Positions 37,283 through 52,276 of a DNA stretch of 64,000 bases are shown here, piece after piece. The notes beneath the pieces were generated by a model that saw nothing but the letters and a program-made list of their open reading frames with translations, was not told the origin of the DNA and did no database searches. How positions within the stretch are numbered: the stretch's first letter is position 1; every line of letters starts with the position of its first letter. The stretch covers positions 288,001 through 352,000 of the forward strand of contig CAVPIW010000005.1 in NCBI GenBank assembly GCA_963705105.1, in the 5' to 3' direction. Made by a program: the position numbers and the translations under genes. Origin of the DNA: an uncultured Nitrospiraceae bacterium. GTDB taxonomy: Bacteria; Nitrospirota; Thermodesulfovibrionia; Thermodesulfovibrionales; Dissulfurispiraceae.

Positions 37283-38047
37283 ATGAACCTCTTTCTCATT
37301 AAATCAGGCCTCTCTGTCCTTTTGCTTCTACTCGCGGGCATTTCGACATTCACGATGCTCGAAGTGTTCGGCAGGAGTGAAAAGCGCTACAACATCCAGA
37401 CGCTGAAGACGATTCACAGGGTCTCAGGCATTGTTTACATCCTCCTCTTCCTCTGTGTCGCATACCTGTGCGTTCATTATCTCGTCGTGGCCAAGTCCGA
37501 TCTGACTCCCCGCAATACGGTCCATATCCTCTTCGCCCTGTCGATCTTTGCGCTCCTAAGTCTGAAGGTCCTGTTCGTGAAGGTGTACCGCCAATTCTAC
37601 CCGAAGGTGCAGACCATGGGGCTTGCCCTGTCCCTGCTCACGGTGGGACTCTTCGGCTTTTCCGGCGGGTTTTATCTTGCCGTGACGGAGTTCGGGACGG
37701 ACGATGCCTACTACCGGAAGCATGAGCAGGCGGAACAGGCCCGGGAAAGCTCCGGAACGGGAGATCCCCTTGCAAAGACGGTCATTCATCGCGGCGATCC
37801 GAAGAAAGGGCGGACTGTCTTCGAAGAAAAGTGCCGCTTCTGTCACGATCCCGGCAGTGCGCAGATCACCGTCGGGCCCGGGCTCAAGGGGATTCTCAAG
37901 GGCTCATCATTGCCGGCGAGCGGCAAGCCGGCGACACCGCAAAACATCGCTCTCCAGTTGAAGAAACCACTCGGCAAGATGCCTTCCTTCGCACACATGA
38001 CGGACGAAGAAGTGGCCAACTTGCTTGCATATCTGAAGACGCTCTGA
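37283..38047 (+). CDS. Membrane protein (4 TM, His-containing) fused to c-type cytochrome
   Basis: IHRVSG..VHILF TM helices; CRFCH..GPGLKG..MPSF. Confidence 0.82.
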   Translation: MNLFLIKSGLSVLLLLLAGISTFTMLEVFGRSEKRYNIQTLKTIHRVSGIVYILLFLCVAYLCVHYLVVAKSDLTPRNTVHILFALSIFALLSLKVLFVKVYRQFYPKVQTMGLALSLLTVGLFGFSGGFYLAVTEFGTDDAYYRKHEQAEQARESSGTGDPLAKTVIHRGDPKKGRTVFEEKCRFCHDPGSAQITVGPGLKGILKGSSLPASGKPATPQNIALQLKKPLGKMPSFAHMTDEEVANLLAYLKTL

Positions 38048-38093
38048 AAATAGTGACAGTGTCGGTGTGAGTGTCAGTCAAAGGGAGGGAAAA

Positions 38094-38465
38094 GTGAAGA
38101 TCCGCATCATCCTGTGTGTCATTTCAGGGCTCGTCATCCTGTTTGCTTTCAGCGGCGCCCGGTCCGCATCACCGTCAAAGGCGCAGCCGGTCGTTGTCAA
38201 GAAAGACAGGAAGAGCATCGAGGCGGGCAGGGGCTTGTTCAGGGACAAGTGCTCCTTCTGCCACGAGACGGCGAGCACCGCCTCCATCGTCGGGCCCGGG
38301 CTCAAGGGGATCATGAAAAACAAGACCCTCCCGGTCAGCGGAAGGCCGTCCACAGCGGAAAGCATCGTCTATCAGATGAGGACCCCTTTCAAGGAAATGC
38401 CGTCGTTTTCCTACATGAACGACAGGGACATCGGCAACATCATCGCGTTCCTCAATACGCTGTAG
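38094..38465 (+). CDS. c-type cytochrome, paralog of the preceding domain
   Basis: GTG start after GGGAGG; signal peptide; CSFCH..GPGLKG..MPSF. Confidence 0.85.
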   Translation: MKIRIILCVISGLVILFAFSGARSASPSKAQPVVVKKDRKSIEAGRGLFRDKCSFCHETASTASIVGPGLKGIMKNKTLPVSGRPSTAESIVYQMRTPFKEMPSFSYMNDRDIGNIIAFLNTL

Positions 38466-38476
38466 AGGTCACCGGC

Positions 38477-40507
38477 ATGCCCCGCAACATTCCCGTCGGC
38501 AATGACAGCCTCCTCATCACCTTCGATGAGGACTACTGCATCAGGGACATTTACTTCCCCTGCGTCGGCAAGGAGAACCACACCGTCGGGCACCGATTCA
38601 GGACCGGGCTCTGGGTCGACGGGCAATTCAGTTGGATCGACCGCTCCTGGAACCTCAACCTTGAATACGCGGGAGAGAGCATCATGAGCCACGTCACTGC
38701 CGTCAACGAGCGTCTCGGTGTGACCCTTCACTGCAACGACCTTGTAGATTACCGCGAAAACATCTACATCAAAAAAATCCTGATCAGGAATCTCGCCGAC
38801 CGGAAGCGCGAATTCCGCCTCTTTTTTCAGCACGACTTCCACATCTCCGAGTCCCCGACGGGGGACACGGCTTACTACGACCCGGACGAGCGGGCGGTCA
38901 TACACTACAAGGGGAACCGCTATTTCCTGACAAGCGGCATGCGGAATTCGGCGCACGGCATTGACCAGTTCGCCACGGGCGTCAAGGAATTCAGGGGGAT
39001 GGAGGGCACATGGAGGGACGCTGAGGACGGGGTGCTCGGGGGCAATCCCATCGCACAGGGATCGGTCGATTCCACAATCGGGTTCACCGTCACAGTGGAA
39101 GCCTCGGGCCTGCAGACCATTTACTACTGGATAACGGCAGGGCAGAACTACTCCGAAGTGAGCACCCTGAACAAGATGGTCGTGGGCCACGGCGTGGAGC
39201 ACCTCATCGCGAGGACCGACAGTTACTGGAGCGCATGGATCGACAAGGAGGGGTTCGATCTCTCGGTCCTCCCCGCCGGAGTCGCCAACCTCTTCAGGAA
39301 CAGCCTCCTCATCATGAGGACCAATGTCGACTCGACAGGGGCGATCATGGCTGCCAACGATTCCGACATCCAGCACTTTGCGCGGGATACCTACAGCTAT
39401 ATGTGGCCGAGGGACGGCGCCCTCACGGCCTATGCCTTCGACCTGGCCGGTTATATCGGCATTTCGAGACGGTTTTTCGATTTCTGCCTCGACATCATCG
39501 GCAAGGGCAAGGAATCGGTCGGCTATTTCCTCCACAAGTACAACCCCGACGGGTCCCTCGGCAGTTCCTGGCACCCCTGGATCAGCGACAGCGACAAAAA
39601 ACTGCCCATCCAGGAGGATGGCACAGGGCTCGTGCTCTGGGCGCTCTGGCACCACTTCCATAAATACCGGGACATCGAATTCATCGTCAGGCTCTACGAA
39701 CAGCTCGTCACCCGCTGCGGGGACTTCCTCACGTCTTACCGGGACGGAGAAACGGGCCTTCCCCTTCCCTCCTACGATCTCTGGGAGGAGAAGTGGGGGG
39801 TCCACACCTTCACGGTTTCTGCTGTCTATGCAGGCATCAGGGCTGCCGAGAATTTTACGCGCTTCTTCAGCGACTTCCGGAGGGCAAAGATGTATGCCCG
39901 GGCTGCCGACGAGATCAGGACCGCCATGGACACGTACCTGTACAGCCGGGAGCACGGCAGGTTCCTCAAGTCGATCGTCCCCCGTGACGACGGGTCCTTC
40001 GACGTCGATCTCACCGTCGATTCCAGCATGTACGCGCCTTTCTATTTCGGTGTTTTCGAGCCCGATGACGAGAGGGTCGTGAACACGATGCATGCGATCA
40101 GGGAAAAACTATGGGTCAAAACGGAGGTGGGAGGGATCGCGCGGTACGAGTATGATTACTATCACAGGGTGTCGGACAACGTGAGGGATGTGCCGGGAAA
40201 CCCCTGGTTCATCTGTACCCTGTGGCTCGCCCAGTGGCACATTGCGCGGGCGAAGACGGCCGACGACCTCAAAGAGGTGATCCCGATCCTTGAATGGGTC
40301 GTCTCGCGGGCCTTGCCCTCAGGCGTTCTGGCTGAACAGGTCCATCCCTACACGAACAAGCCACTGTCCGTCTCCCCCCTGACGTGGAGCCACGCAGCCT
40401 TTGTGACAACGGTCCTGGAGTACCTGAACAAGCTCGAAACGATCCATGTCTGCCCCATGTGCGGCGCACCCCTTCACAGCCACAGAAGGGACATGCACCA
40501 CGGGTGA
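38477..40507 (+). CDS. Glycoside hydrolase family 15 (glucoamylase-like)
   Basis: MPRNIPVGN, YSYMWPRDG, IQEDGT, YDLWEE, LAEQ..SPLTWSHA. Confidence 0.9.
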   Translation: MPRNIPVGNDSLLITFDEDYCIRDIYFPCVGKENHTVGHRFRTGLWVDGQFSWIDRSWNLNLEYAGESIMSHVTAVNERLGVTLHCNDLVDYRENIYIKKILIRNLADRKREFRLFFQHDFHISESPTGDTAYYDPDERAVIHYKGNRYFLTSGMRNSAHGIDQFATGVKEFRGMEGTWRDAEDGVLGGNPIAQGSVDSTIGFTVTVEASGLQTIYYWITAGQNYSEVSTLNKMVVGHGVEHLIARTDSYWSAWIDKEGFDLSVLPAGVANLFRNSLLIMRTNVDSTGAIMAANDSDIQHFARDTYSYMWPRDGALTAYAFDLAGYIGISRRFFDFCLDIIGKGKESVGYFLHKYNPDGSLGSSWHPWISDSDKKLPIQEDGTGLVLWALWHHFHKYRDIEFIVRLYEQLVTRCGDFLTSYRDGETGLPLPSYDLWEEKWGVHTFTVSAVYAGIRAAENFTRFFSDFRRAKMYARAADEIRTAMDTYLYSREHGRFLKSIVPRDDGSFDVDLTVDSSMYAPFYFGVFEPDDERVVNTMHAIREKLWVKTEVGGIARYEYDYYHRVSDNVRDVPGNPWFICTLWLAQWHIARAKTADDLKEVIPILEWVVSRALPSGVLAEQVHPYTNKPLSVSPLTWSHAAFVTTVLEYLNKLETIHVCPMCGAPLHSHRRDMHHG

Positions 40508-40511
40508 CAAT

Positions 40512-40739
40512 ATGCCGGCGCAGATAGAAGACAACTACGAGAACGAGGCCGTCTGCCTGCGGTTCTGCGGGACCTGCCCCTCCTACCCGGGAGTGAAAGG
40601 CGAAATCCTTTTCTGCGCCCGCGGCAAGAGCGGCGCCCCGAAGCGGAAAACAGGATGCAACTGCGGTCTCTGCGACCTCTGGAACAAGTACGAGCTGTCG
40701 GATTTCTACTATTGCATCGACAGGAAAAAGGAGGATTAG
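40512..40739 (+). CDS. Small Cys-rich protein, DUF2769-like
   Basis: C..CGTCPSY..LFCARGKS..GCNCGLC..YYC. Confidence 0.72.
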   Translation: MPAQIEDNYENEAVCLRFCGTCPSYPGVKGEILFCARGKSGAPKRKTGCNCGLCDLWNKYELSDFYYCIDRKKED

Positions 40740-40769
40740 AGGGCGAGCCGCTGTTGCCGTGAAAAGTCC

Positions 40770-42008
40770 ATGGCAAAGTATATGAAGAGACGGGATTTTC
40801 TCAAACACTCCGTTGCGGCAGTCGGCGCGCTCGTCGCGTCGGCTCAGGAAGGGCAGGCGCAGCATGACCACGGGGCCCATGCCGGACATGGCGCCGCGGA
40901 AGGACCGAAGCATGATCACATAAAGATGCACGAGCCCGTCGGATGGTCGGACCCGAAGATCACGATGTCCCCCCCACCCCCCCTCATGGGAAAGCAGATG
41001 GGCAGTGTCCACACGCCGGATGTCCCTCCTATAGGTTACGAACTGGACGGCAGGGTCAAGGTCTTCACCCTCATCGTCCAGCCCGTGGAGCGTCTCATCC
41101 TCGACGGCGAACCTCCCGAGGGCTCCATCTGGGACAGGGTCCACAAGGCAAAGGGAATCATGCAGGGCATGCACATCCCGAAGAAGGTGAGGGTCTGGGG
41201 AGTCAACGGCGTTGTCCCCGGCCCGACCATCGAGGCCGTCGAAGGAGACCGGGTGCGTTTCATCGTCAGGAACGAGCTGCCCGAGCCGACATCGGTCCAC
41301 TGGCACGGCATCGAACTCCCCAATGATCAGGACGGTGTCGGCGGCGTCACGCAACCGCCGGTCCAACCGGGGGAGACCTTCGTCTATGAGTTCACGCTCT
41401 ACCAGCACGGCACGTTCATGTATCATTCGAGCTTCAATGAGAAGAAGCAGGTCGGCATGGGGTTCGGGGGGATGTTCGTCGTCCATCCGAAGAAAAGGCG
41501 TTTCTCCATCGACAGGGACTTCGCCATCGTCATACAGGAGTGGAAGTTCCTCCCGGGCAACGAAAATCCCGAGATCACCTCAACGGACCCCAACTGGTTC
41601 ACCTTCAACGCCAAATCGGCGCCCAGCACGGAGATCCTGACAGTGAACCAGGGAGACCGCGTGCGGATACGCTTCGGGAACCTGAGCAACCAGAACAGCC
41701 ATCCCATCCACCTGCACGGCCACACATGGAAGGTCGTCGGCACCGAGGGCGGTCCGGTTCCCGAATCGGCGCAATGGCCGGGAAACACCGTCGACGTGGC
41801 TCCGGGCTCAGTGCGGGACGTGGAGTTCGTCGCCTGGAACCCCGGGCTCTGGCACTTTCACTGCCACAAGCTCCACCACACAGTCAACGCCCATGCCGAC
41901 ATGCCCATGGGCGTCATGCCCATGGGAGGAATGACCACCTTTCTCCAGGTGATACCGAAAGACCCGAAGCCAACCTGGAGGCACTTCAGCGACAAAGGAA
42001 AGCGATGA
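40770..42008 (+). CDS. Tat-exported multicopper oxidase
   Basis: KRRDFLK signal; HWHG, MYHS, HPIHLHGH, HCHKLHH copper motifs. Confidence 0.92.
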   Translation: MAKYMKRRDFLKHSVAAVGALVASAQEGQAQHDHGAHAGHGAAEGPKHDHIKMHEPVGWSDPKITMSPPPPLMGKQMGSVHTPDVPPIGYELDGRVKVFTLIVQPVERLILDGEPPEGSIWDRVHKAKGIMQGMHIPKKVRVWGVNGVVPGPTIEAVEGDRVRFIVRNELPEPTSVHWHGIELPNDQDGVGGVTQPPVQPGETFVYEFTLYQHGTFMYHSSFNEKKQVGMGFGGMFVVHPKKRRFSIDRDFAIVIQEWKFLPGNENPEITSTDPNWFTFNAKSAPSTEILTVNQGDRVRIRFGNLSNQNSHPIHLHGHTWKVVGTEGGPVPESAQWPGNTVDVAPGSVRDVEFVAWNPGLWHFHCHKLHHTVNAHADMPMGVMPMGGMTTFLQVIPKDPKPTWRHFSDKGKR

Positions 42009-43384
42009 TCACCGCGCGTCGATGGTGGACGTTTGTTTTCTGCCTCTTCGTCCTGGCTTCCTGCGCGCAAATTGACTCAAGCAGGGAGTGGGACAGGACA
42101 AAGAGGGGCGCCCTGGAGCTGACGGGCTATGAGCCCCGTTGGGCCAGGTCGGACGAGGCAAAGGCATCGGTCCGGACGGAGATCGACCGCCTCCTCTCCG
42201 ACGGCCTCACCATGGATGAGGCGGTGCATATCGCCCTCATGAACAATGCGAAAATGCAGGCATCCTTCGAAGAGATCGGCATCGCCGCAGCCGAATACGT
42301 CCGCGCCGGTCTGCCGGCGAATCCGGCAATCGGCGCCGCTTTCCGGTTCCCTTCCGGACAGGGAGATACCGAAATCGATGCGGACATGATGATCGATCTG
42401 GCGGCCCTCTGGCAGATACCGCGGCGAAGTGATGCTGCACGGACGAAAAATGATGTCACACGCGCCGTCATCCTCGATGAGATGGCACGGGTAGTCACGG
42501 AGGTAACAGTCGCCTTCATGGACTGCCTCGCCCTGTCGATGATCAGAGAGGAGGGCCTGCGTTTGAAGAGGGAACTCGACGAGTGGGCGTCGCACCTCCG
42601 GTATCGCAGAGGCTTCGGCTTTACGAGCGATGTCGAGATGCATACGGCCGGGACCGTGATCGCTGAACAGGAGATCGAGCTTATCCGCATCGGGAGCGCC
42701 GAAAAATCGGCGAGGGCGAGACTGACCAGGCTGCTCGGCCTGAAGCCGGGAAGAGCCCGGTATGACATGAAAGGATCCATAGACTATAGCGTCGCTCCGA
42801 TGCCGGATTACGGAGAGGCGCTGACGGCAGCGCTGACAAGGAGACCGGACGTTCAGGCAGCGGAACTCAGGGTGACCGAGGCCGGCCACCTGCTTTCCCT
42901 GGAACGGACGCGAGTCCTGCCGCACCTGGAGGCGGGGATCTCATTTTCCCATGATCATGAGGGGAAGGACGCCTATGGCCCGGCATTCGCCCTCCAACTG
43001 CCCGTCTTTGACCGGAATCAGGCGCAGATATCAGCGGCTGAGCACCGGCTCCGCCAGGCCGAACGGGAACTGGAGGAAAAGAAGGCCATCGTGGGCGAAG
43101 AAGTTGCTGAAGCCATAGAACTTCTTATGGCATCACGCCAGGAGGTGACGATCCTGAAAGACCGCCTCCTGCCGCTGAGAAGGGAAGCCGTTATATTCAC
43201 CGAGAAGTACGTCAATGCGATGGAACTCACCATGCTCAACCTCTTTGAGGCGCGGCTGCGGCTGTTCGAAGCGCAGAGACGGTTCATCGAGGCCATGAGG
43301 GATAGCAGGAAGCGGGAGATCGAGTTCGCCCGGGCAACGGGGAGGCTGACCCCGACTGTGCCGCAGGGACACAAAGGACAATGA
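42005..43384 (+). CDS. TolC-family outer-membrane lipoprotein
   Basis: Lipobox LASC; LTMDEAVHIAL, ALTRRPDV, LPVFDRNQ; start overlaps the oxidase stop. Confidence 0.88.
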   Translation: MITARRWWTFVFCLFVLASCAQIDSSREWDRTKRGALELTGYEPRWARSDEAKASVRTEIDRLLSDGLTMDEAVHIALMNNAKMQASFEEIGIAAAEYVRAGLPANPAIGAAFRFPSGQGDTEIDADMMIDLAALWQIPRRSDAARTKNDVTRAVILDEMARVVTEVTVAFMDCLALSMIREEGLRLKRELDEWASHLRYRRGFGFTSDVEMHTAGTVIAEQEIELIRIGSAEKSARARLTRLLGLKPGRARYDMKGSIDYSVAPMPDYGEALTAALTRRPDVQAAELRVTEAGHLLSLERTRVLPHLEAGISFSHDHEGKDAYGPAFALQLPVFDRNQAQISAAEHRLRQAERELEEKKAIVGEEVAEAIELLMASRQEVTILKDRLLPLRREAVIFTEKYVNAMELTMLNLFEARLRLFEAQRRFIEAMRDSRKREIEFARATGRLTPTVPQGHKGQ

Positions 43385-43403
43385 GAATAAGGAGGGAACG
43401 GAC

Positions 43404-43910
43404 ATGAAAGCGTTGATCATCAGTGCCGACGATTTTGAGGACACGGAACTCCTCGTCCCCTACTACCGGCTCAGGGAGGAGGGGATCGACGTCGACGTGG
43501 CGTCGATGAAGAAGACGAAGATCAGGGGGAAGCACGGATACGAGGTGACGCCGACCAAAAGGCTCGCCGACGTGAACCCCGACGAGTACGACCTCCTCAT
43601 TCTGCCCGGCGGCAAGGCCCCCGAAGCGGTCCGGAAGGAGGAAAAAGCCCTCGACATAGCCCGCAATTTCTTCCAAAAGAACAAGCCTGTCTCTGCCATC
43701 TGCCACGGGCCGCAGACGCTCATTTCGGCCGGGCTCATGAAGGGGAGGCACGCCACCTGTTACAAGTCGGTGGCGAAGGAGATGAAGGCGGCGGGGGCGC
43801 GCTATGAGGATCAGGAGGTGATCGTGGACGGCAATCTCGTCACATCACGGCATCCCGCCGATCTGCCGGCCTTCATGCGTGAAACGATGAGACTCCTGAA
43901 GAAAGGTTAA
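43404..43910 (+). CDS. PfpI/DJ-1 family protein
   Basis: FEDTE, LILPGG, AICHGP, VDGNLVTSR. Confidence 0.92.
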   Translation: MKALIISADDFEDTELLVPYYRLREEGIDVDVASMKKTKIRGKHGYEVTPTKRLADVNPDEYDLLILPGGKAPEAVRKEEKALDIARNFFQKNKPVSAICHGPQTLISAGLMKGRHATCYKSVAKEMKAAGARYEDQEVIVDGNLVTSRHPADLPAFMRETMRLLKKG

Positions 43911-44105
43911 CCTTATCGTTGCAATACACTTCCGGGAAAGGCGGGGCGTATGCGCCGAAAACCTTGCTGCGGCGACACCTGTATCGAAGAAGACGAGGCA
44001 TACGCCGATGTCAGGAGAATTGGACATCTTTTCCGACACTGACACACACTGACACTGACACTGTTTTCAGAGTGCTTCGCCACGCCTTTCTATACAACTA
44101 CAAGG
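43911..44105. mobile_element. MITE family A copy (hexamer-repeat interior)
   Basis: CC..GG ends, perfect TTAA direct repeats at 43907-43910 (includes the pfpI stop) and 44106-44109. Confidence 0.82.
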
Positions 44106-44174
44106 TTAACAGGCCGATTCGCTGGGGCAAAGGAAGAGGCGATTGATCTCCCGTGCCCCCGTCTCTCCGGTCGC

Positions 44175-44603
44175 TCAGTATCTTCTCTCGTACTTCTCGC
44201 TTTCGCAGACTTCCCTGACCTGGTCCTTCACCATCCTGCCGTCTTCCCAGACCTTCTCGTGCACTTTTCTGCATTTGGTCTGGCCGTCAGGATAATAGGC
44301 ACCTCCTTCAGGTTCGGCATAGTAGCGCCCCCGGCCGTCGTCGGTCCTGTATTCCACGGGTCTCCCCGTAGTGGCGACCTGGCGGGACCCCCTCATCGAG
44401 ATATCGGTTATAGTCGCCCCGGCGACGGCGCCGAGGCCTGCGCCGATGACTCCGCCTCTCCACGGGTTCTTATGGTCGATAAGCGCTCCGGCGATTCCTC
44501 CGACGAGACCGCCTGCAGCAGCTCCCTCATAGTGGTACTGTGTGCATCCGGTCATCGATGTCGACAGAGCAATCGCCAGTGCGACGGCAATGATTCCCTT
44601 CAT
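44175..44603 (-). CDS. Glycine-zipper lipoprotein
   Basis: Lipobox MTGC; GAAAGGLVGGIAGA..GAGLGAVAGA. Confidence 0.85.
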   Translation of the reverse strand: MKGIIAVALAIALSTSMTGCTQYHYEGAAAGGLVGGIAGALIDHKNPWRGGVIGAGLGAVAGATITDISMRGSRQVATTGRPVEYRTDDGRGRYYAEPEGGAYYPDGQTKCRKVHEKVWEDGRMVKDQVREVCESEKYERRY

Positions 44604-45022
44604 TGTACATCCTCCTGCGTTTTGGTTTCATGCCTGACATGACATTATCTTAAAATCTTTTGTTTATTATAGCCCGTTATCCTTCCCCCTGTCTCTTCTT
44701 CACGCGGAGCAGACCCGAAAGTTCAGTAGTGGAGCGCTGCTCTAATGGACTAAAGACGTCTGACCAATGTACTCCAAGATAAAGACTTCTGACCAATGCC
44801 TGATTTTTGATGTCTAATGATTTATGCCGTGGCATCTTCCCCCCACCTTTTCCGGGGGTTGGATGACCGGTCAAAAAGGCATGCCCTTTTGGATGCGATA
44901 GGGTATAATATGACGTATAATATGACTGGACCGCCGGCTTGGGCATGATGCGACAGGATCGGCGATGGTCGAAAAAAACAGAGGAAGACCACCATACATA
45001 ATGCAATAAAAAGGGGGCAGTC

Positions 45023-45673
45023 ATGGATGCGATTCAGGCAATAAGCGAACGAAGGTCGATAAACTTCTTTGAACCCAACAGAGAGATTTCGGACGACAAG
45101 CTGAACAACCTCCTGGGCATAGCGAACCTGTCGCCGTCTTCCTTCAATCTGCAGCCCTGGAAGGTGCTCGTGATCCGCGACCACGGCAAGAAGAAATTCC
45201 TCCGCCAGTGCGCCTTCAACCAGCCGAAGGCGGAGGAGGCATCGGCGATGCTCATCATCATAGCCGACCCCGCGGCTGTCGAGGAGAACATCGACAAGGT
45301 GCTTAAGAGCTGGGAAAAGCTCGGGTACATGAACCCCGAGATGAGGGACCCCTACATCAAGATGATCAAAGGCCTCTACGGCGAGCAGAACACCGAAAAG
45401 AGGAGGCTCTTCGCCGTGAAGAACGCCGCGCTGTTTGCCATGAACGTGATGATTACGGCCAAGGACCTGGGACTCGAAACGCATCCCATGGACGGTATTG
45501 ACGAAGAGTGCATCAAGAAAGAGTTCAGCATCCCTGAGGACAAATTGATCCCTATGCTCATCGCCGTCGGTTACCTGAAAGAAGGGGTGTCCCTGCTGCC
45601 GAGGGCATGGAGGAGATCAATCGGAGAATTCGTGAGATTCGAATCGTACTACGTCGATCTCGAGATGTACTGA
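45023..45673 (+). CDS. Nitroreductase family protein
   Basis: ERRSINFF, SPSSFNLQPW, THPMDG. Confidence 0.92.
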   Translation: MDAIQAISERRSINFFEPNREISDDKLNNLLGIANLSPSSFNLQPWKVLVIRDHGKKKFLRQCAFNQPKAEEASAMLIIIADPAAVEENIDKVLKSWEKLGYMNPEMRDPYIKMIKGLYGEQNTEKRRLFAVKNAALFAMNVMITAKDLGLETHPMDGIDEECIKKEFSIPEDKLIPMLIAVGYLKEGVSLLPRAWRRSIGEFVRFESYYVDLEMY

Positions 45674-45731
45674 TCATGCCTCAGGGACGGCGCCGCTCTG
45701 AAAAACCCGTCCCCGGAAGGAGAAAGGGCCG

Positions 45732-46421
45732 GTGAATCTCTGCAGAAGGGAATTCCTGATCACAGCCTGTGCCGGCATGACTGCCGCCGTGCTGTGCTCG
45801 TATGATCATCTACCTGCTGAAACAGGAAAGGAGAAAAAAACAATGGCCTATACTGCAAAAGATTATGCAAAACTGATCGGGATGGAGGGTTTCAGCGAAA
45901 CGCTCCTCAAGAACCATTTCACCCTGTACCAGGGCTATGTGACGAACACGAACAAAGTCCTCGACACGCTTGACCAGATGCTCAAAGACGGCAAGACAGC
46001 CACACCGGAGTTTGCCGAACTGAAGAGGAGACTGGGATGGGAGTTCAACGGCATGCGGCTCCATGAGTACTATTTCGAGAACCTCGGGGGCAAGGCCGCC
46101 ATCAACAAGGACGGCAAGCTTGCGAAGAAACTGGCCGGGGACTTCGGAAGCTATGAAGCATGGGAAAAAGATTTCAAGGGGACCGGCACCATGCGGGGCA
46201 TCGGATGGGTCGTCCTGTATCAGGACAGCGCAAACGGAAAACTTATCAATTTCTGGATCAATGAGCACGACGTGTCCCATCCCGCCGGCTGCAACCCCAT
46301 CCTCATCATGGACGTCTTCGAGCATGCCTTCATGATCGATTACGGGCTCAAGAGGGCCGATTACATCGAGGCCTTCTTCAAGAACATCGACTGGGCAGCG
46401 GCGGAAGCGCGGCTTAAGTAG
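45732..46421 (+). CDS. Fe/Mn superoxide dismutase (ChrC-like) with Tat-like N-terminal extension; second start at 45843
   Basis: NHFTLYQGY, LHEYYF, MDVFEHAF metal ligands; CRREFL motif after GTG 45732. Confidence 0.88.
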   Translation: MNLCRREFLITACAGMTAAVLCSYDHLPAETGKEKKTMAYTAKDYAKLIGMEGFSETLLKNHFTLYQGYVTNTNKVLDTLDQMLKDGKTATPEFAELKRRLGWEFNGMRLHEYYFENLGGKAAINKDGKLAKKLAGDFGSYEAWEKDFKGTGTMRGIGWVVLYQDSANGKLINFWINEHDVSHPAGCNPILIMDVFEHAFMIDYGLKRADYIEAFFKNIDWAAAEARLK

Positions 46422-46442
46422 AGACCCGCTCCGCTTTCCGTT

Positions 46443-46489
46443 ACAAGACCGGCCGGGACAGACCCTCTGTCCCGGCCGGTCTTGTTTCT
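46443..46489 (+). terminator. Intrinsic terminator after SOD
   Basis: Perfect 20-bp stem acaagaccggccgggacaga / tctgtcccggccggtcttgt followed by ttct. Confidence 0.8.
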
Positions 46490-46565
46490 ATCCCCGCCCC
46501 TCAAAGTCCTTCTGGATGCAGAAACTATGCACCACCCTCATTTTCAAAGTTCTCCAAGAGTCATT

Positions 46566-46593
46566 TTGGACAAGAGTGACATTCGGGTATAAT
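46566..46593 (+). promoter_or_regulatory. Sigma70-type promoter for the peptide gene
   Basis: Perfect TATAAT at 46588-46593, TTGGAC 16 bp upstream. Confidence 0.55.
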
Positions 46594-46618
46594 TAAGGCA
46601 GAAAGGAGGTGATGCCGG

Positions 46619-46768
46619 ATGAAGAAGGTGATGAATGAGAAAGCCCTTGCCGCGGAGGCAGCATTCTGGGGAGTCATGAAGAAACCGCTCACCGGGCAAT
46701 CGGGCAAGATCTGTCACAAATGAAAGGGCTGAAAGAGCTGAACATTGCCAGGATGGCAATGCACGTAG
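46619..46768 (+). CDS. Putative RiPP precursor peptide; 34 aa to first UGA (46723), up to 49 aa if UGAs are read as Sec
   Basis: Strong RBS AAGGAGGT; MKKVMNEKALAAEAAFWGVMKKPLTGQSGKICHK-U-KG-U-KS-U-TLPGWQCT-TAG; upstream of a radical SAM/SPASM gene. Confidence 0.75.
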
Positions 46769-46769
46769 T

Positions 46770-46820
46770 ACAGGCAGGGCGGGCGGGCGGCATTCTTTTC
46801 GATATCGTCACCCTGCCTGT
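46770..46820 (+). other. Hairpin downstream of the precursor (stabiliser/attenuator)
   Basis: 10-bp stem acaggcaggg / ccctgcctgt. Confidence 0.5.
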
Positions 46821-46845
46821 TCCAATTTCTTCCTGTGTCAAGGTT

Positions 46846-46981
46846 TGACGGATTCGCAAAAGGTCCTTTCCAAACACTTGTCCGTCATTCCCGTGCAGAC
46901 GGGAATCCAATGTATTCAGTCAGTTTCTTCTGGTCTGGATACCCGCCTTCGCGAGTATGACAACTTTTTGCGAGGTCGTAA
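46846..46981. repeat. REP-dimer element family B copy 3
   Basis: gtcattcccgtgcagacgggaatcca and ctggatacccgccttcgcgagtatgac; AAGGTTTGAC repeated at 46840 and 46981. Confidence 0.75.
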
Positions 46982-47012
46982 AGGTTTGACTGAATGAAAA
47001 TGGATCGTCAGC

Positions 47013-48056
47013 ATGCACTATGAATTTTTTATCCAGCTTCACCTCACCGAGAGGTGCAATCTCCGGTGCACCCATTGTTATCAGGGAGGCAACGGGGTTG
47101 ACGAGATGTCCCTTGACGAGATCAGGGACCTCATCGGTGAAGTCGAGGGGATGATCGGGACATGGTCGTCATCGTACTGCCTGGAATTTTCGCCCAGCTT
47201 CACGATTACCGGAGGCGAGCCCTTCCTGAGAAAGGATTTCTTCACGGTCCTTGATGACCTTTCGGCGCGGGGAATCGACACCTTCGTCCTCACGAACGGT
47301 ACCCTTGTCGGGAAGGACAATGCCCGCGACCTTTCACGCCTCGGGATCAAAGGTGTCCAGGTGAGCGTCGATGGACCCCGGGAGATCCATGACCGGATCA
47401 GGGGAAAAGGGAGCTTCACTTCCGCCCTCAGGGGGGTGCGCCATCTCCTTGACGCAGGTATCACAGTCACTCTGAATATGACCCTCTCCTCTCTGAACTC
47501 CGGTTCTTTCATGGAGATGGTCGATCTGTCGAAATCTCTCGGCGTGCAGAGGCTTGGGTTTTCGCGCCTCGTTCCCTGCGGCAGGGGAGAGGTCATGGCA
47601 GGGTCACTCCTCAGCAAGATGGAACTTCGGGAGCTCTGCGAGCGTGCCGAAGCGCTGCACATCGACGGTCTCGAGATCGTCACCGGTGACCCTGTGGCGT
47701 CGCAGATTTCATCTCTCCACGCAGGATGCAGCGATATCGTGCCGGAGAGCGGACCATCCGGTGGGTGCGCCGCAGCCTTTTCAGGATTGACGATCCTGCC
47801 CGACGGCACCATCACCCCCTGCCGGAGACTGCCCGTCCCCATCGGGAATGTGCGCCGTGACAGCCTGAGGGAGGTCTGGGCGACGTCGGAGGTGCTTCAG
47901 CGCCTCAGGGACCAGGGGTCGTACAGGGGAAAGTGCGGGACCTGTTCACGCTGGAATGTCTGCAGAGGTTGCAGGGCCATCGCCTACGCATACGCTCACC
48001 TGCAGGGTCAGGCCGACTACCTGGCAGAAGACCCCCAGTGTTTCATTGAATCATGA
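47013..48056 (+). CDS. Radical SAM/SPASM protein (probable peptide maturase)
   Basis: CNLRCTHC, TGGEP, SVDG; SPASM C..PDGTITPC..IGNV..CGTC..CRGC..DPQC. Confidence 0.9.
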   Translation: MHYEFFIQLHLTERCNLRCTHCYQGGNGVDEMSLDEIRDLIGEVEGMIGTWSSSYCLEFSPSFTITGGEPFLRKDFFTVLDDLSARGIDTFVLTNGTLVGKDNARDLSRLGIKGVQVSVDGPREIHDRIRGKGSFTSALRGVRHLLDAGITVTLNMTLSSLNSGSFMEMVDLSKSLGVQRLGFSRLVPCGRGEVMAGSLLSKMELRELCERAEALHIDGLEIVTGDPVASQISSLHAGCSDIVPESGPSGGCAAAFSGLTILPDGTITPCRRLPVPIGNVRRDSLREVWATSEVLQRLRDQGSYRGKCGTCSRWNVCRGCRAIAYAYAHLQGQADYLAEDPQCFIES

Positions 48057-48301: not shown

Positions 48302-48394
48302 ATAACAAATGACTCAATGACTTTCACGTTGGCATTTCGCTCCACCCTTATAATGCAGCAGGCGGGTTTTATTAAATAGAAGGGAGGCTTGGAC

Positions 48395-48841
48395 ATGCCG
48401 CATGCCGGATTGATGGACGAAAGAGAGCTCGGGCCGGAGGCCGGGCCGTTACTGAGGGCAAAGCTCCACATACGGGGCGGGAAGAGACGGTTGCATCAGG
48501 GGAAAATAGCGGCCGGCATCGTCACCCTTTATGACGCCCTGTCCGCAGCCATGGAATGGTATATCAACAGGCCCGGGTGCAGGGAGACCCTGAGAATTCA
48601 GGACGGCGATAACCTCGATGACGAGCGGACGGCCTATGCTGTTCTTAACCGCTCGGGGATTCTCGACGGCTCCTTCGATTATGACGCCTTCGACATCCTC
48701 CTCGAACGGGCCCTTCATGAAGACCTGGAAGGGTTCGACTATAGGCGGATGCTCAAGGGCCTCGAGTCGATCATGACGCAGCTCGGCGTCATGCCCTTCG
48801 ACGAGGCAGCCCTGCCGCCCGAAGACCCATCGACATACTGA
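48395..48841 (+). CDS. Hypothetical protein
   Basis: RBS GGGAGG; natural-looking ~148-aa ORF. Confidence 0.7.
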   Translation: MPHAGLMDERELGPEAGPLLRAKLHIRGGKRRLHQGKIAAGIVTLYDALSAAMEWYINRPGCRETLRIQDGDNLDDERTAYAVLNRSGILDGSFDYDAFDILLERALHEDLEGFDYRRMLKGLESIMTQLGVMPFDEAALPPEDPSTY

Positions 48842-51348: not shown

Positions 51349-52276
51349 GGGGTCAGGTCTTGTTTCTTGCATTTTCCATCCTGCTGATCCTGCTTACCGT
51401 TGAGGAATGGATGCCGAGGAAATCCCCAACCTCCTTCAGGCTGTATCCATGTTCCATAACGGCCCTTTTGATCGCTGATGCCCTATGCTTTTCGCCTGTA
51501 GTCCCCTCTTCCTCAAACAGGCTTTCAAGTGATGGCCTTCCCGCATATCGCTGCCTCTTGGGGATCTCTTTGATATCCATCTGTCCTTTGACGTATCCGT
51601 GCAGGCGGTCGACGAAGTCCTCATCACCAAGGATGCTCTGCCCTTTGACCTTCTCCCATATCCCTTTTTCATTTATGCCGGCCGCCACAAACTCACGGTA
51701 TTTTGTCGCAGCCTGCCGCCTCTTTGATCCGAATTGTCCCAGGATCCAGTCCGTTGTGAGGCAGAGATGAGGTTCTTCAAGGGCCGCCATCGCTCGGTAA
51801 CTGCTCCATGTCCAGTCCTCGGGCTTTCCTGCTGCTTTCGCCCTGACCGGATTCAGAACAACGTATCTGCAAACCTCAAGGAGATAACTTTCCTTCTCTA
51901 TCAGGATCGCCTTATACCTGCCCTGAAGGAGGTGGCCGACACGGGTATGTCGTTTGTTGAAAAGCTGCGTGTATACGCCGTTAAGTTGTCTCATGCCTCG
52001 CGAGAGGTTTCCCTCCGGTGTTTCAACAACCAGGTGATAGTGATTGTTCATGAGACAGTAGGCGTGGCAGAGCCAATTGTAGCGTTTGTTGACTTCATGG
52101 AGGATATCAAGGAAGGCCCGTCGGTCAGCATCGTCCCGATAAATGAGTTTCCGCTCATTACCCCGGGAGGTTATGTGATAGAGTGCACCGTCGTATTCTA
52201 TCCTCAGCGGCCGGGCCATTTCACCTAAGAATAGCATATCTCCATGGGGAGATTGCAAGAAACAAGACCTGACCCC
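51349..52276. mobile_element. Element with perfect 23-bp TIRs enclosing a Y1 transposase
   Basis: ggggtcaggtcttgtttcttgca (51349-51371) / tgcaagaaacaagacctgacccc (52254-52276). Confidence 0.85.
51353..52219 (-). CDS. Y1 HUH transposase (RAYT/IS200-like) with C-terminal HTH
   Basis: MARPLRIEY..YHITSRGN..YCLMNNHYHL..RYVVLNPVRA..WSSY; stop codon lies inside the TIR. Confidence 0.9.
   Translation of the reverse strand: MARPLRIEYDGALYHITSRGNERKLIYRDDADRRAFLDILHEVNKRYNWLCHAYCLMNNHYHLVVETPEGNLSRGMRQLNGVYTQLFNKRHTRVGHLLQGRYKAILIEKESYLLEVCRYVVLNPVRAKAAGKPEDWTWSSYRAMAALEEPHLCLTTDWILGQFGSKRRQAATKYREFVAAGINEKGIWEKVKGQSILGDEDFVDRLHGYVKGQMDIKEIPKRQRYAGRPSLESLFEEEGTTGEKHRASAIKRAVMEHGYSLKEVGDFLGIHSSTVSRISRMENARNKT

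Follow-up and report, generated by a model that had tools for sequence, protein, structure and literature searches.

The stretch of DNA analysed here (the window, 64,000 nucleotides at full length) carries a short peptide gene followed on the same strand by a gene for a radical SAM/SPASM enzyme (Table 1). As the earlier note had reported, the peptide frame was missed by the open reading frame track: it starts with the ATG at 46619 and runs for 34 codons to a TGA at 46721, where the series TGA-AAG-GGC-TGA-AAG-AGC-TGA begins, and the radical SAM/SPASM gene lies 3′ of it. The strong ribosome binding site assigned to the peptide gene is likewise present, and 113 of 114 homologous peptide genes have a Shine-Dalgarno-like word upstream. 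The promoter claimed for the gene fared less well; a TATAAT is found at 46588, but a sigma-70 consensus scan returned 0 sites. Apart from the ribosome binding site, TTGACA is the commonest 6-mer upstream of the homologous peptide genes (66 of 114).

Table 1. Features of the peptide-enzyme locus, in positions of the window.
Feature	Position	Strand	Remarks
Long hairpin 3′ of the upstream superoxide dismutase gene	46443..46485	+	Fold of 46430-46492, -43 kcal/mol
Possible promoter, weak	46567..46593	+	TGGACA, 15 nt, TATAAT; read in sequence
Ribosome binding site AGGAGG	46604..46609	+	Read in sequence
Precursor peptide gene	46619..46741	+	Predicted 40 aa; basic leader with E-x-x-F-W; core C32-H-K-U35-K-G-U38-K-S; true stop TGA 46739-46741
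UGA1, predicted Sec35	46721..46723	+	27 nt before SECIS loop; TGA in 142/142 loci; Cys in P0225 and P0303
UGA2, predicted Sec38	46730..46732	+	18 nt before SECIS loop; TGA in 142/142 loci; host selD spacing 17 nt
Third UGA, termination codon	46739..46741	+	9 nt from loop, below the model's 16-37 nt
SECIS hairpin, wholly 3′ of the stop codon	46743..46761	+	8 bp, 3-nt loop starting with G, -9.5 kcal/mol
Second long stem-loop, in the peptide-enzyme gap	46770..46821	+	-26.3 kcal/mol
Palindromic REP/MITE-like repeat in the peptide-enzyme gap	46857..46989	.	35 blastn HSPs genome-wide, including itself
Radical SAM/SPASM enzyme gene	47013..48056	+	347 aa; without RRE; CxxxCxxC (C15/19/22) and seven SPASM Cys (252, 270, 308, 311, 317, 320, 343)

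The long hairpin downstream of the superoxide dismutase gene is probably a terminator that sets this gene apart from the peptide gene. The second long stem-loop is possibly a terminator or an mRNA stabiliser; a similar stem occurs in five other short-gap-free loci that were folded (L002, L036, L039, L061 and L221) and is absent from the folded loci L207 and L247. The REP/MITE-like repeat is an insertion outside the two-gene system, and a gene for a REP-associated tyrosine transposase lies in the same window at 51353-52258 (NF047646, 82.4 versus 80). An ORF of 150 aa at 48389-48841 has no NCBIfam match, and a look-alike frame follows the enzyme gene at locus L009. Upstream, a stress and metal cluster (37283-46421) comprises genes for cytochromes c, a glucoamylase-like protein, a multicopper oxidase-like protein with a TolC-like channel, PfpI, a nitroreductase and an Fe/Mn superoxide dismutase.

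The host genome (4.2 Mb, 99% complete) holds the selenocysteine machinery on which the reading of the earlier note depended, namely selA, selB, selD (with an in-frame TGA of its own) and tRNA-Sec, and no second copy of the peptide was found in it. Named relatives of the host's enzyme are labelled Nitrospirota or Thermodesulfovibrionales, and the host is accordingly taken to belong probably to the class Thermodesulfovibrionia. Two metatranscriptome assemblies contain short contigs over the peptide gene, with 46633-46791 identical and 46610-46773 carrying nine differences; such contigs cannot show transcription or its level. Elsewhere in the genome, an array of 23 tRNA genes occupies G000:C4:10181-12340 on a 78-kb contig and five more tRNA genes lie on contig C3 (67% GC), and this DNA is possibly mobile or contaminating.

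Related loci were gathered in three ways: from the surroundings of enzyme orthologues, with a DNA pattern, and with a peptide profile in which both UGA columns were given as Cys, to which one single Cys-form protein query was added. The DNA pattern, which accepted any third base at UGA1, matched 68 of the 301 genomes of the class, and three of its hits were false (G254, G091 and one site in G144). Of 401 genomes from the phylum to which a Syntrophales carrier belongs, 29 gave matches (two false), as did 14 of 301 from the class of a Dehalococcoidia carrier (one weak and unlinked) and 11 of 20 from another Nitrospirota family. A search for related loci with the single enzyme as query found nothing, and one with the enzyme alignment found 80 loci, of which 16 reached at least 41% identity. 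The counts given below for 142 loci leave out a degenerate copy (L079), a ferredoxin-like false hit (L249), a locus without the core (L248), 19 metagenome loci and duplicates. About a third of the Thermodesulfovibrionia sampled (102 of 301) carry the peptide, and its leader is conserved as protein across three phyla. The gene selA is present in 98 of the 102 carriers, the four others being fragmented, and SelB in five of five distant carriers; as selA is found in 281 of the 301 class genomes, however, its co-occurrence does not discriminate.

Gene callers shorten the peptide at UGA1, and the family is therefore hidden in databases: 117 of the 120 database matches listed end at C-x-x, and nearly all of 111 representative matches stop at profile position 34 (nine were inspected individually). 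Neither NCBIfam nor Pfam gave a meaningful match for 40 peptides at E<=10, and the ESM Atlas gave no usable match for the 34-aa form.

Cys32, UGA1 and UGA2 are each found in 142 of 142 homologous loci from Nitrospirota, Desulfobacterota-type deltaproteobacteria and Dehalococcoidia, a set of kin rather than of independent trials, though one drawn from three phyla and with enzyme identities as low as about 40%. UGA1 is thus never replaced by the TAA or TAG that, in homologues, would have spoken against recoding, and a second filter applied to a larger set of loci gave TGA at both sites in 150 of 150. This invariance was not built in, as the search profile had Cys at both columns and the filters let TGC and TGT through. 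The codons between the two UGAs vary synonymously or conservatively (AGY and TCN for Ser, AAA and AAG for Lys). At the third periodic position, by contrast, TGA (54 loci), TAA (47), TAG (11) and sense codons (30) vary freely while UGA1 and UGA2 do not, which argues that the third UGA is a stop codon. The true stop is TGA in 59 loci, TAA in 55 and TAG in 28, and it lies two residues after UGA2 in 112 loci, three in 29 and four in one. Our core argument is this contrast between two fixed UGA codons and a stop that drifts beside them, from which the peptide is most likely 40 aa long, with two selenocysteines rather than three (CxxUxxU) and the ending C-H-K-U-K-G-U-K-S. Together with the geometry and covariation of the SECIS hairpin, it makes the insertion of selenocysteine almost certain in our judgement. 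The recoding proposed in the earlier note thus stands for the first two UGAs, and its caveat that the third may sit too near the hairpin and act as the stop is borne out by the variation at this position and by a distance of 9 nt that lies outside the model.

Homologues with Cys aligned to the UGAs, which the earlier note had recommended seeking, are scarce. Two single protein records without DNA, so that their codons are unseen, lend thin support: P0225 has Cys at both UGA sites and P0303 at the first only. Genomic DNA yielded no Cys version in 150 loci, and 19 metagenome matches to a Cys-version DNA pattern were all chance ones, none with leader or enzyme. The peptide family appears almost obligately selenocysteine-containing. 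Two other records, P0155 and P0247, have Trp at the UGA positions; they are probably gene calls under a TGA=Trp code and were not taken as evidence.

The loop G of the hairpin at 46743-46761 is 27, 18 and 9 nt from UGA1, UGA2 and the third UGA respectively, as the earlier note had measured. The bSECIS model (PMC13188914) specifies a loop of 3-9 nt, a stem of 4-16 bp, a G in the first two loop positions, a distance of 16-37 nt from the UGA and an MFE <= -7.5 kcal/mol; UGA1 and UGA2 fall within these limits and the third UGA falls outside them. In 133 of the 142 loci UGA2 is followed at 15-19 nt by the loop of a hairpin of 5 bp or more, compared with 8.1% of 5000 random TGAs in the host genome, and the G in the first two loop positions is present in 140 of 142. 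Among 70 aligned sequences, 97.3% of cells are paired and four of six pairs show two-sided changes. Such changes occupy 36 cells versus 8.1 after shuffling, and slid controls are 16-60% paired; the structure was drawn from the same 70 sequences, and kinship inflates the shuffle test. We conclude that the hairpin is a SECIS element, which covaries and fits the bacterial model for UGA1 and UGA2. Rfam gave no SECIS family match, only chance hairpin matches.

In selD and two further candidate selenoprotein genes of the host the SECIS spacing is 17 nt. UGA1 has no hairpin of its own and lies 25-28 nt from the loop in most loci, versus 17 nt in the three host elements measured. The two further candidates encode a VMM-U-GCP protein (G000:C14:183516(-)) and a methyltransferase-like SG-U-ITG protein (C6:886025(+)). 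At the peptide loci the SECIS loop lies past the stop codon in 114 of 114 cases measured. Since PMC13188914 places the SECIS elements of bacteria inside coding regions, a SECIS in the 3′-UTR that serves two codons is unusual, though it may have precedents: UxxU proteins appear in the selenoprotein table of that paper, and a C-terminal selenocysteine in other proteins would force a similar position. The family would lend itself to studying how bacterial SelB serves two UGAs from a single SECIS and how it works with one placed beyond the coding sequence, as more than 100 natural variants bracket the spacing: UGA would mean selenocysteine at 16-28 nt in most loci and stop at under 10 nt.

The cysteine motifs and fold of the enzyme, along with its dedicated short precursor, suggest a radical SAM/SPASM protein of the RiPP-maturase type. 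All ten Cys (CxxxCxxC and seven in the SPASM region) are invariant in 58 enzyme sequences, and the seven are spaced like the three cluster-1 and four cluster-2 ligands of CteB, an arrangement suggestive of crosslinking or oxidation at selenium or sulphur. In a structure model with pLDDT 85 the closest folds are SkfB, SuiB and anSME, then PqqE. The enzyme scores below the cutoff of each of the best 25 NCBIfam models, its best scores, to the heme-biosynthesis models AhbD/NirJ2 and to the ACGX maturase, all being far below, so that its substrate may be something other than a peptide.

That this enzyme is the dedicated partner of the peptide, as the earlier note implied, agrees with their distribution. 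The enzyme gene lies within 1 kb 3′ of the peptide in 122 of 142 loci, and in the 301-genome class sample the peptide is present in 99 of 99 genomes with an enzyme orthologue, even where the two are unlinked (64 by the pattern and 35 by the profile). Only two of 45 enzyme-negative controls have the peptide, both beside a partial or broken enzyme gene; G201 is a similar case, making three peptide-positive genomes below the enzyme threshold in all, and the remaining enzyme-negative genomes were screened by the less sensitive pattern only. When the peptide gene is detached, the enzyme is kept elsewhere in 10 of 10 genomes tested. A tree of 126 enzymes, built by a quick method, places all 45 peptide-adjacent rows on one branch of 49 rows (SH-aLRT 97). 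Decayed peptide genes stand beside intact enzyme genes at L079 (G197) and L008 (G003), with an intact copy elsewhere (L080 and L037).

Among 114 loci with 1.5-4 kb flanks, no constant third gene, protease or exporter recurs. The neighbours include YceI (20), a methyltransferase-like membrane protein (11), a thioredoxin-domain protein (7), a B12 radical SAM protein (7), a flavin disulfide oxidoreductase (6), PfpI (6) and SOD (3), and single detached peptide copies adjoin selD, selB, a selenium-metabolism LysR and ArsS. This company hints at an intracellular redox or selenium role.

We consider it probable that the locus represents an uncatalogued two-gene, RiPP-like system of a di-selenocysteine precursor and a dedicated maturase, whose binding, modification and product could be as follows. 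SelB, acting at one SECIS past the stop codon, would insert selenocysteine at UGA1 and UGA2, a step strongly supported by the comparison of loci, and the third in-frame stop, too near the hairpin, would end translation to give a 40-aa peptide ending C-x-x-U-K-x-U-K-S; within 21 nt UGA would thus be read in two ways. The neighbouring radical SAM/SPASM enzyme, marked by co-occurrence as the peptide's own partner, quite likely takes it as substrate. The E-x-x-F-W leader may dock on this RRE-less enzyme, a Sec or Cys side chain may bind the open iron of auxiliary cluster 1, and the 5′-dA radical may abstract a hydrogen, leading to thio- and selenoether crosslinks, for example from C32 to K36 and from U35 to K39 (i, i+4). 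If the peptide is modified at all, such crosslinks are the leading chemistry, although we give them somewhat less than an even chance; they are favoured because a Lys stands four residues after Cys32 in 134 of 142 loci and after Sec35 (K39) in 141 of 142. The i,i+4 spacing is that of the crosslinks made by PapB. The conserved Lys codons could instead be readthrough context. The formation of seleno- or thio-oxazoles in the manner of SbtM, and other chemistry, are each a step less probable than crosslinking and on a par with one another.

As no protease or exporter is conserved, the product is probably intracellular, and one may speculate that it serves there to buffer redox state, metal or selenium. 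The most specific proposal, which we put forward tentatively and think more apt to fail in some part than to hold as a whole, is a natural family of selenoether-crosslinked RiPPs, in which an RRE-less SPASM enzyme joins Se and S to Lys carbons, the product serves anaerobes of three phyla as an internal redox or selenium buffer, and one 3′-UTR SECIS directs two Sec insertions while the third in-frame UGA terminates. The system would provide a small, synthetically accessible substrate-enzyme pair for new selenium chemistry.

The best surviving alternative, which we nevertheless judge unlikely, is that the di-selenocysteine peptide is made and left unmodified, as an electron or selenium carrier or as a mini-protein that binds metal or Fe-S through CxxUxxU, while the enzyme acts on another substrate. 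Spacing of the CxxCxxC type resembles ferredoxin and metallothionein motifs, and the missing RRE, the lack of a conserved protease or exporter, the heme enzymes at the top of the HMM scores and the detached copies beside selenium genes and ArsS all suit this explanation. A leader and a Cys core directly 5′ of a SPASM enzyme nevertheless form the RiPP pattern, and the best-scoring non-orthologues of the enzyme follow Gly/Ser-rich CxxC-tailed proteins (17 rows), which suggests Cys-rich C-termini as the substrates of the subfamily.

We find it harder still to believe that the frame is a selenium-sensing leader, in which UGA readthrough controls translation or transcription of the enzyme and the peptide itself matters little. 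In 13 of the 112 loci with a located enzyme N-terminus, the only candidate enzyme start overlaps UGA1 (4), UGA2 (5) or the true stop (4), which allows translational coupling; the SECIS there falls inside the enzyme gene, and the window's locus is not among them. Many Nitrospirota loci also have the second stem-loop. The other 99 of the 112 enzymes, however, have their own start after the peptide stop, the peptide remains intact where the enzyme gene is not linked to it, and the leader is conserved at the protein level in three phyla. Coupling may be a secondary layer, and not what the arrangement is for.

Two further readings concern the codons themselves, and we regard both as very improbable. 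That all three UGAs encode selenocysteine in this genome, giving the CxxUxxUxxU pattern and TLPGWQCT tail of the earlier note, would use the TGA found here at the third position and a frame open to TAG with one more Cys; 88 of 142 loci nevertheless have TAA, TAG or a sense codon at the third position, in 40 loci the frame past a third TGA reads as 15 different 4-mers, which take their shape from the hairpin and are not conserved as peptide, and 9 nt to the loop is too short for the SECIS model. That UGA1 is an ordinary stop ending a 34-aa peptide, the rest being either non-coding but conserved or part of an overlapping -1 frame, would accord with the 117 database proteins that end there and with a -1 frame of the pattern [MV]K..LK.L, which in a few loci continues into the enzyme without a stop, but the true stop drifts to TAA or TAG in 83 of 142 loci where UGA1 does not, the G of UGA2 never varies although it is a wobble base in the -1 frame, TAA closes that frame in L207, L240, L245 and L246, and the Cys homologues read on through the position of UGA1.

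The precursor-maturase reading invites comparison with several known systems. In AhbD and NirJ2, which give the highest NCBIfam scores (178.4 and 158.7), length is similar and an RRE is likewise absent, but the enzyme here falls far short of the 500 cutoff, these genomes have a separate, near-universal paralogue of about 35% identity, and no heme-biosynthesis neighbours recur around the peptide loci. Among 41 relatives, the best-scoring non-orthologues are radical SAM enzymes encoded 3′ of TIGR04222-domain proteins (41-42% identity), whose putative substrate has a Cys-periodic C-terminus; there, however, the upstream gene encodes a large membrane protein and no in-frame UGA was seen in the tails, and a sister placement of these enzymes depends on a weak root of the enzyme tree. 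Radical SAM genes directly follow Gly/Ser-rich CxxC-tailed proteins at L013 (where the TIGR04222 domain is found), L014, L015, L127 and 13 more loci, possibly forming a system that modifies protein tails.

Geopeptides (TIGR04229/TIGR04280) also pair a short Cys peptide with a radical SAM gene 3′ of it, and in the same host, but the resemblance of the leader suggested in the earlier note did not hold up: the locus has no TIGR04229 match even at E<=1, and the enzyme scores 66.5 against a cutoff of 400 for TIGR04280, compared with 593.6 for the host's true geopeptide maturase on contig C2. The latter's locus (G000:C2:60867-62443; L250 and L251) has the TIGR04280 maturase preceded by two short peptides in tandem, which are nearly identical and carry a CC motif.

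The ranthipeptide and sactipeptide maturases CteB, PapB, Tte1186 and SkfB share the layout of three plus four SPASM Cys and, to judge by the ligand pattern, the open cluster-1 site, and SkfB is the top PDB match of the enzyme in both sequence and fold. Their natural substrates carry Cys rather than Sec, the enzyme here is without their N-terminal RRE, it scores 68.3 versus 340 with the PapB model and 67.6 versus 300 with that of SkfB, and the peptide core has no conserved Asp, Glu or Thr acceptor in 142 loci. According to PMC10177961, the open iron of PapB and Tte1186 binds substrate selenium, and selenoethers form on synthetic Sec peptides.

PMC13188914 and PMC9204691 describe in SbtA/SbtM (TIGR04081, 'selenobacteriocin', and TIGR04082) a similar arrangement in anaerobes, with a short precursor bearing two UGA-encoded Sec and a radical SAM/SPASM enzyme that oxidises Cys/Sec to thio(seleno)oxazole (PMC9204691). 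The Sec of SbtA lies in a G-U-G type motif, whereas the motif here is C-x-x-U-K-x-U-K; 0 of 40 peptides match the TIGR04081 precursor HMM, and against TIGR04082 the enzyme scores 128.7 versus a cutoff of 350 bits, with the first ~200 of 516 profile positions missing. Judged by these profiles, the pair shares the logic of SbtA/SbtM and is not a member. The host has TIGR04081 matches on other contigs (G000:C17:57956-58033 and C12:186315-186380; L252 and L253), near long radical SAM ORFs; both are short precursors with Cys or Ser that end early in the stretch seen.

Among the texts covered, our search of the literature found no description of this peptide-enzyme system; a term search of PMC12013277 gave 0 matches for it, and C-x-x-U-K-x-U-K is absent among the families in the rows of the PMC13188914 table that were covered. 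The best reading of these comparisons is an uncatalogued Sec-RiPP-like precursor with its putative maturase, neither geopeptide nor SbtA/SbtM. In those rows of the 2026 selenoproteome table (PMC13188914) SbtA is the sole Sec-containing RiPP precursor, and the peptide described here would then be a second, unrelated to SbtA and found in two other phyla besides about one-third of the Thermodesulfovibrionia sampled.
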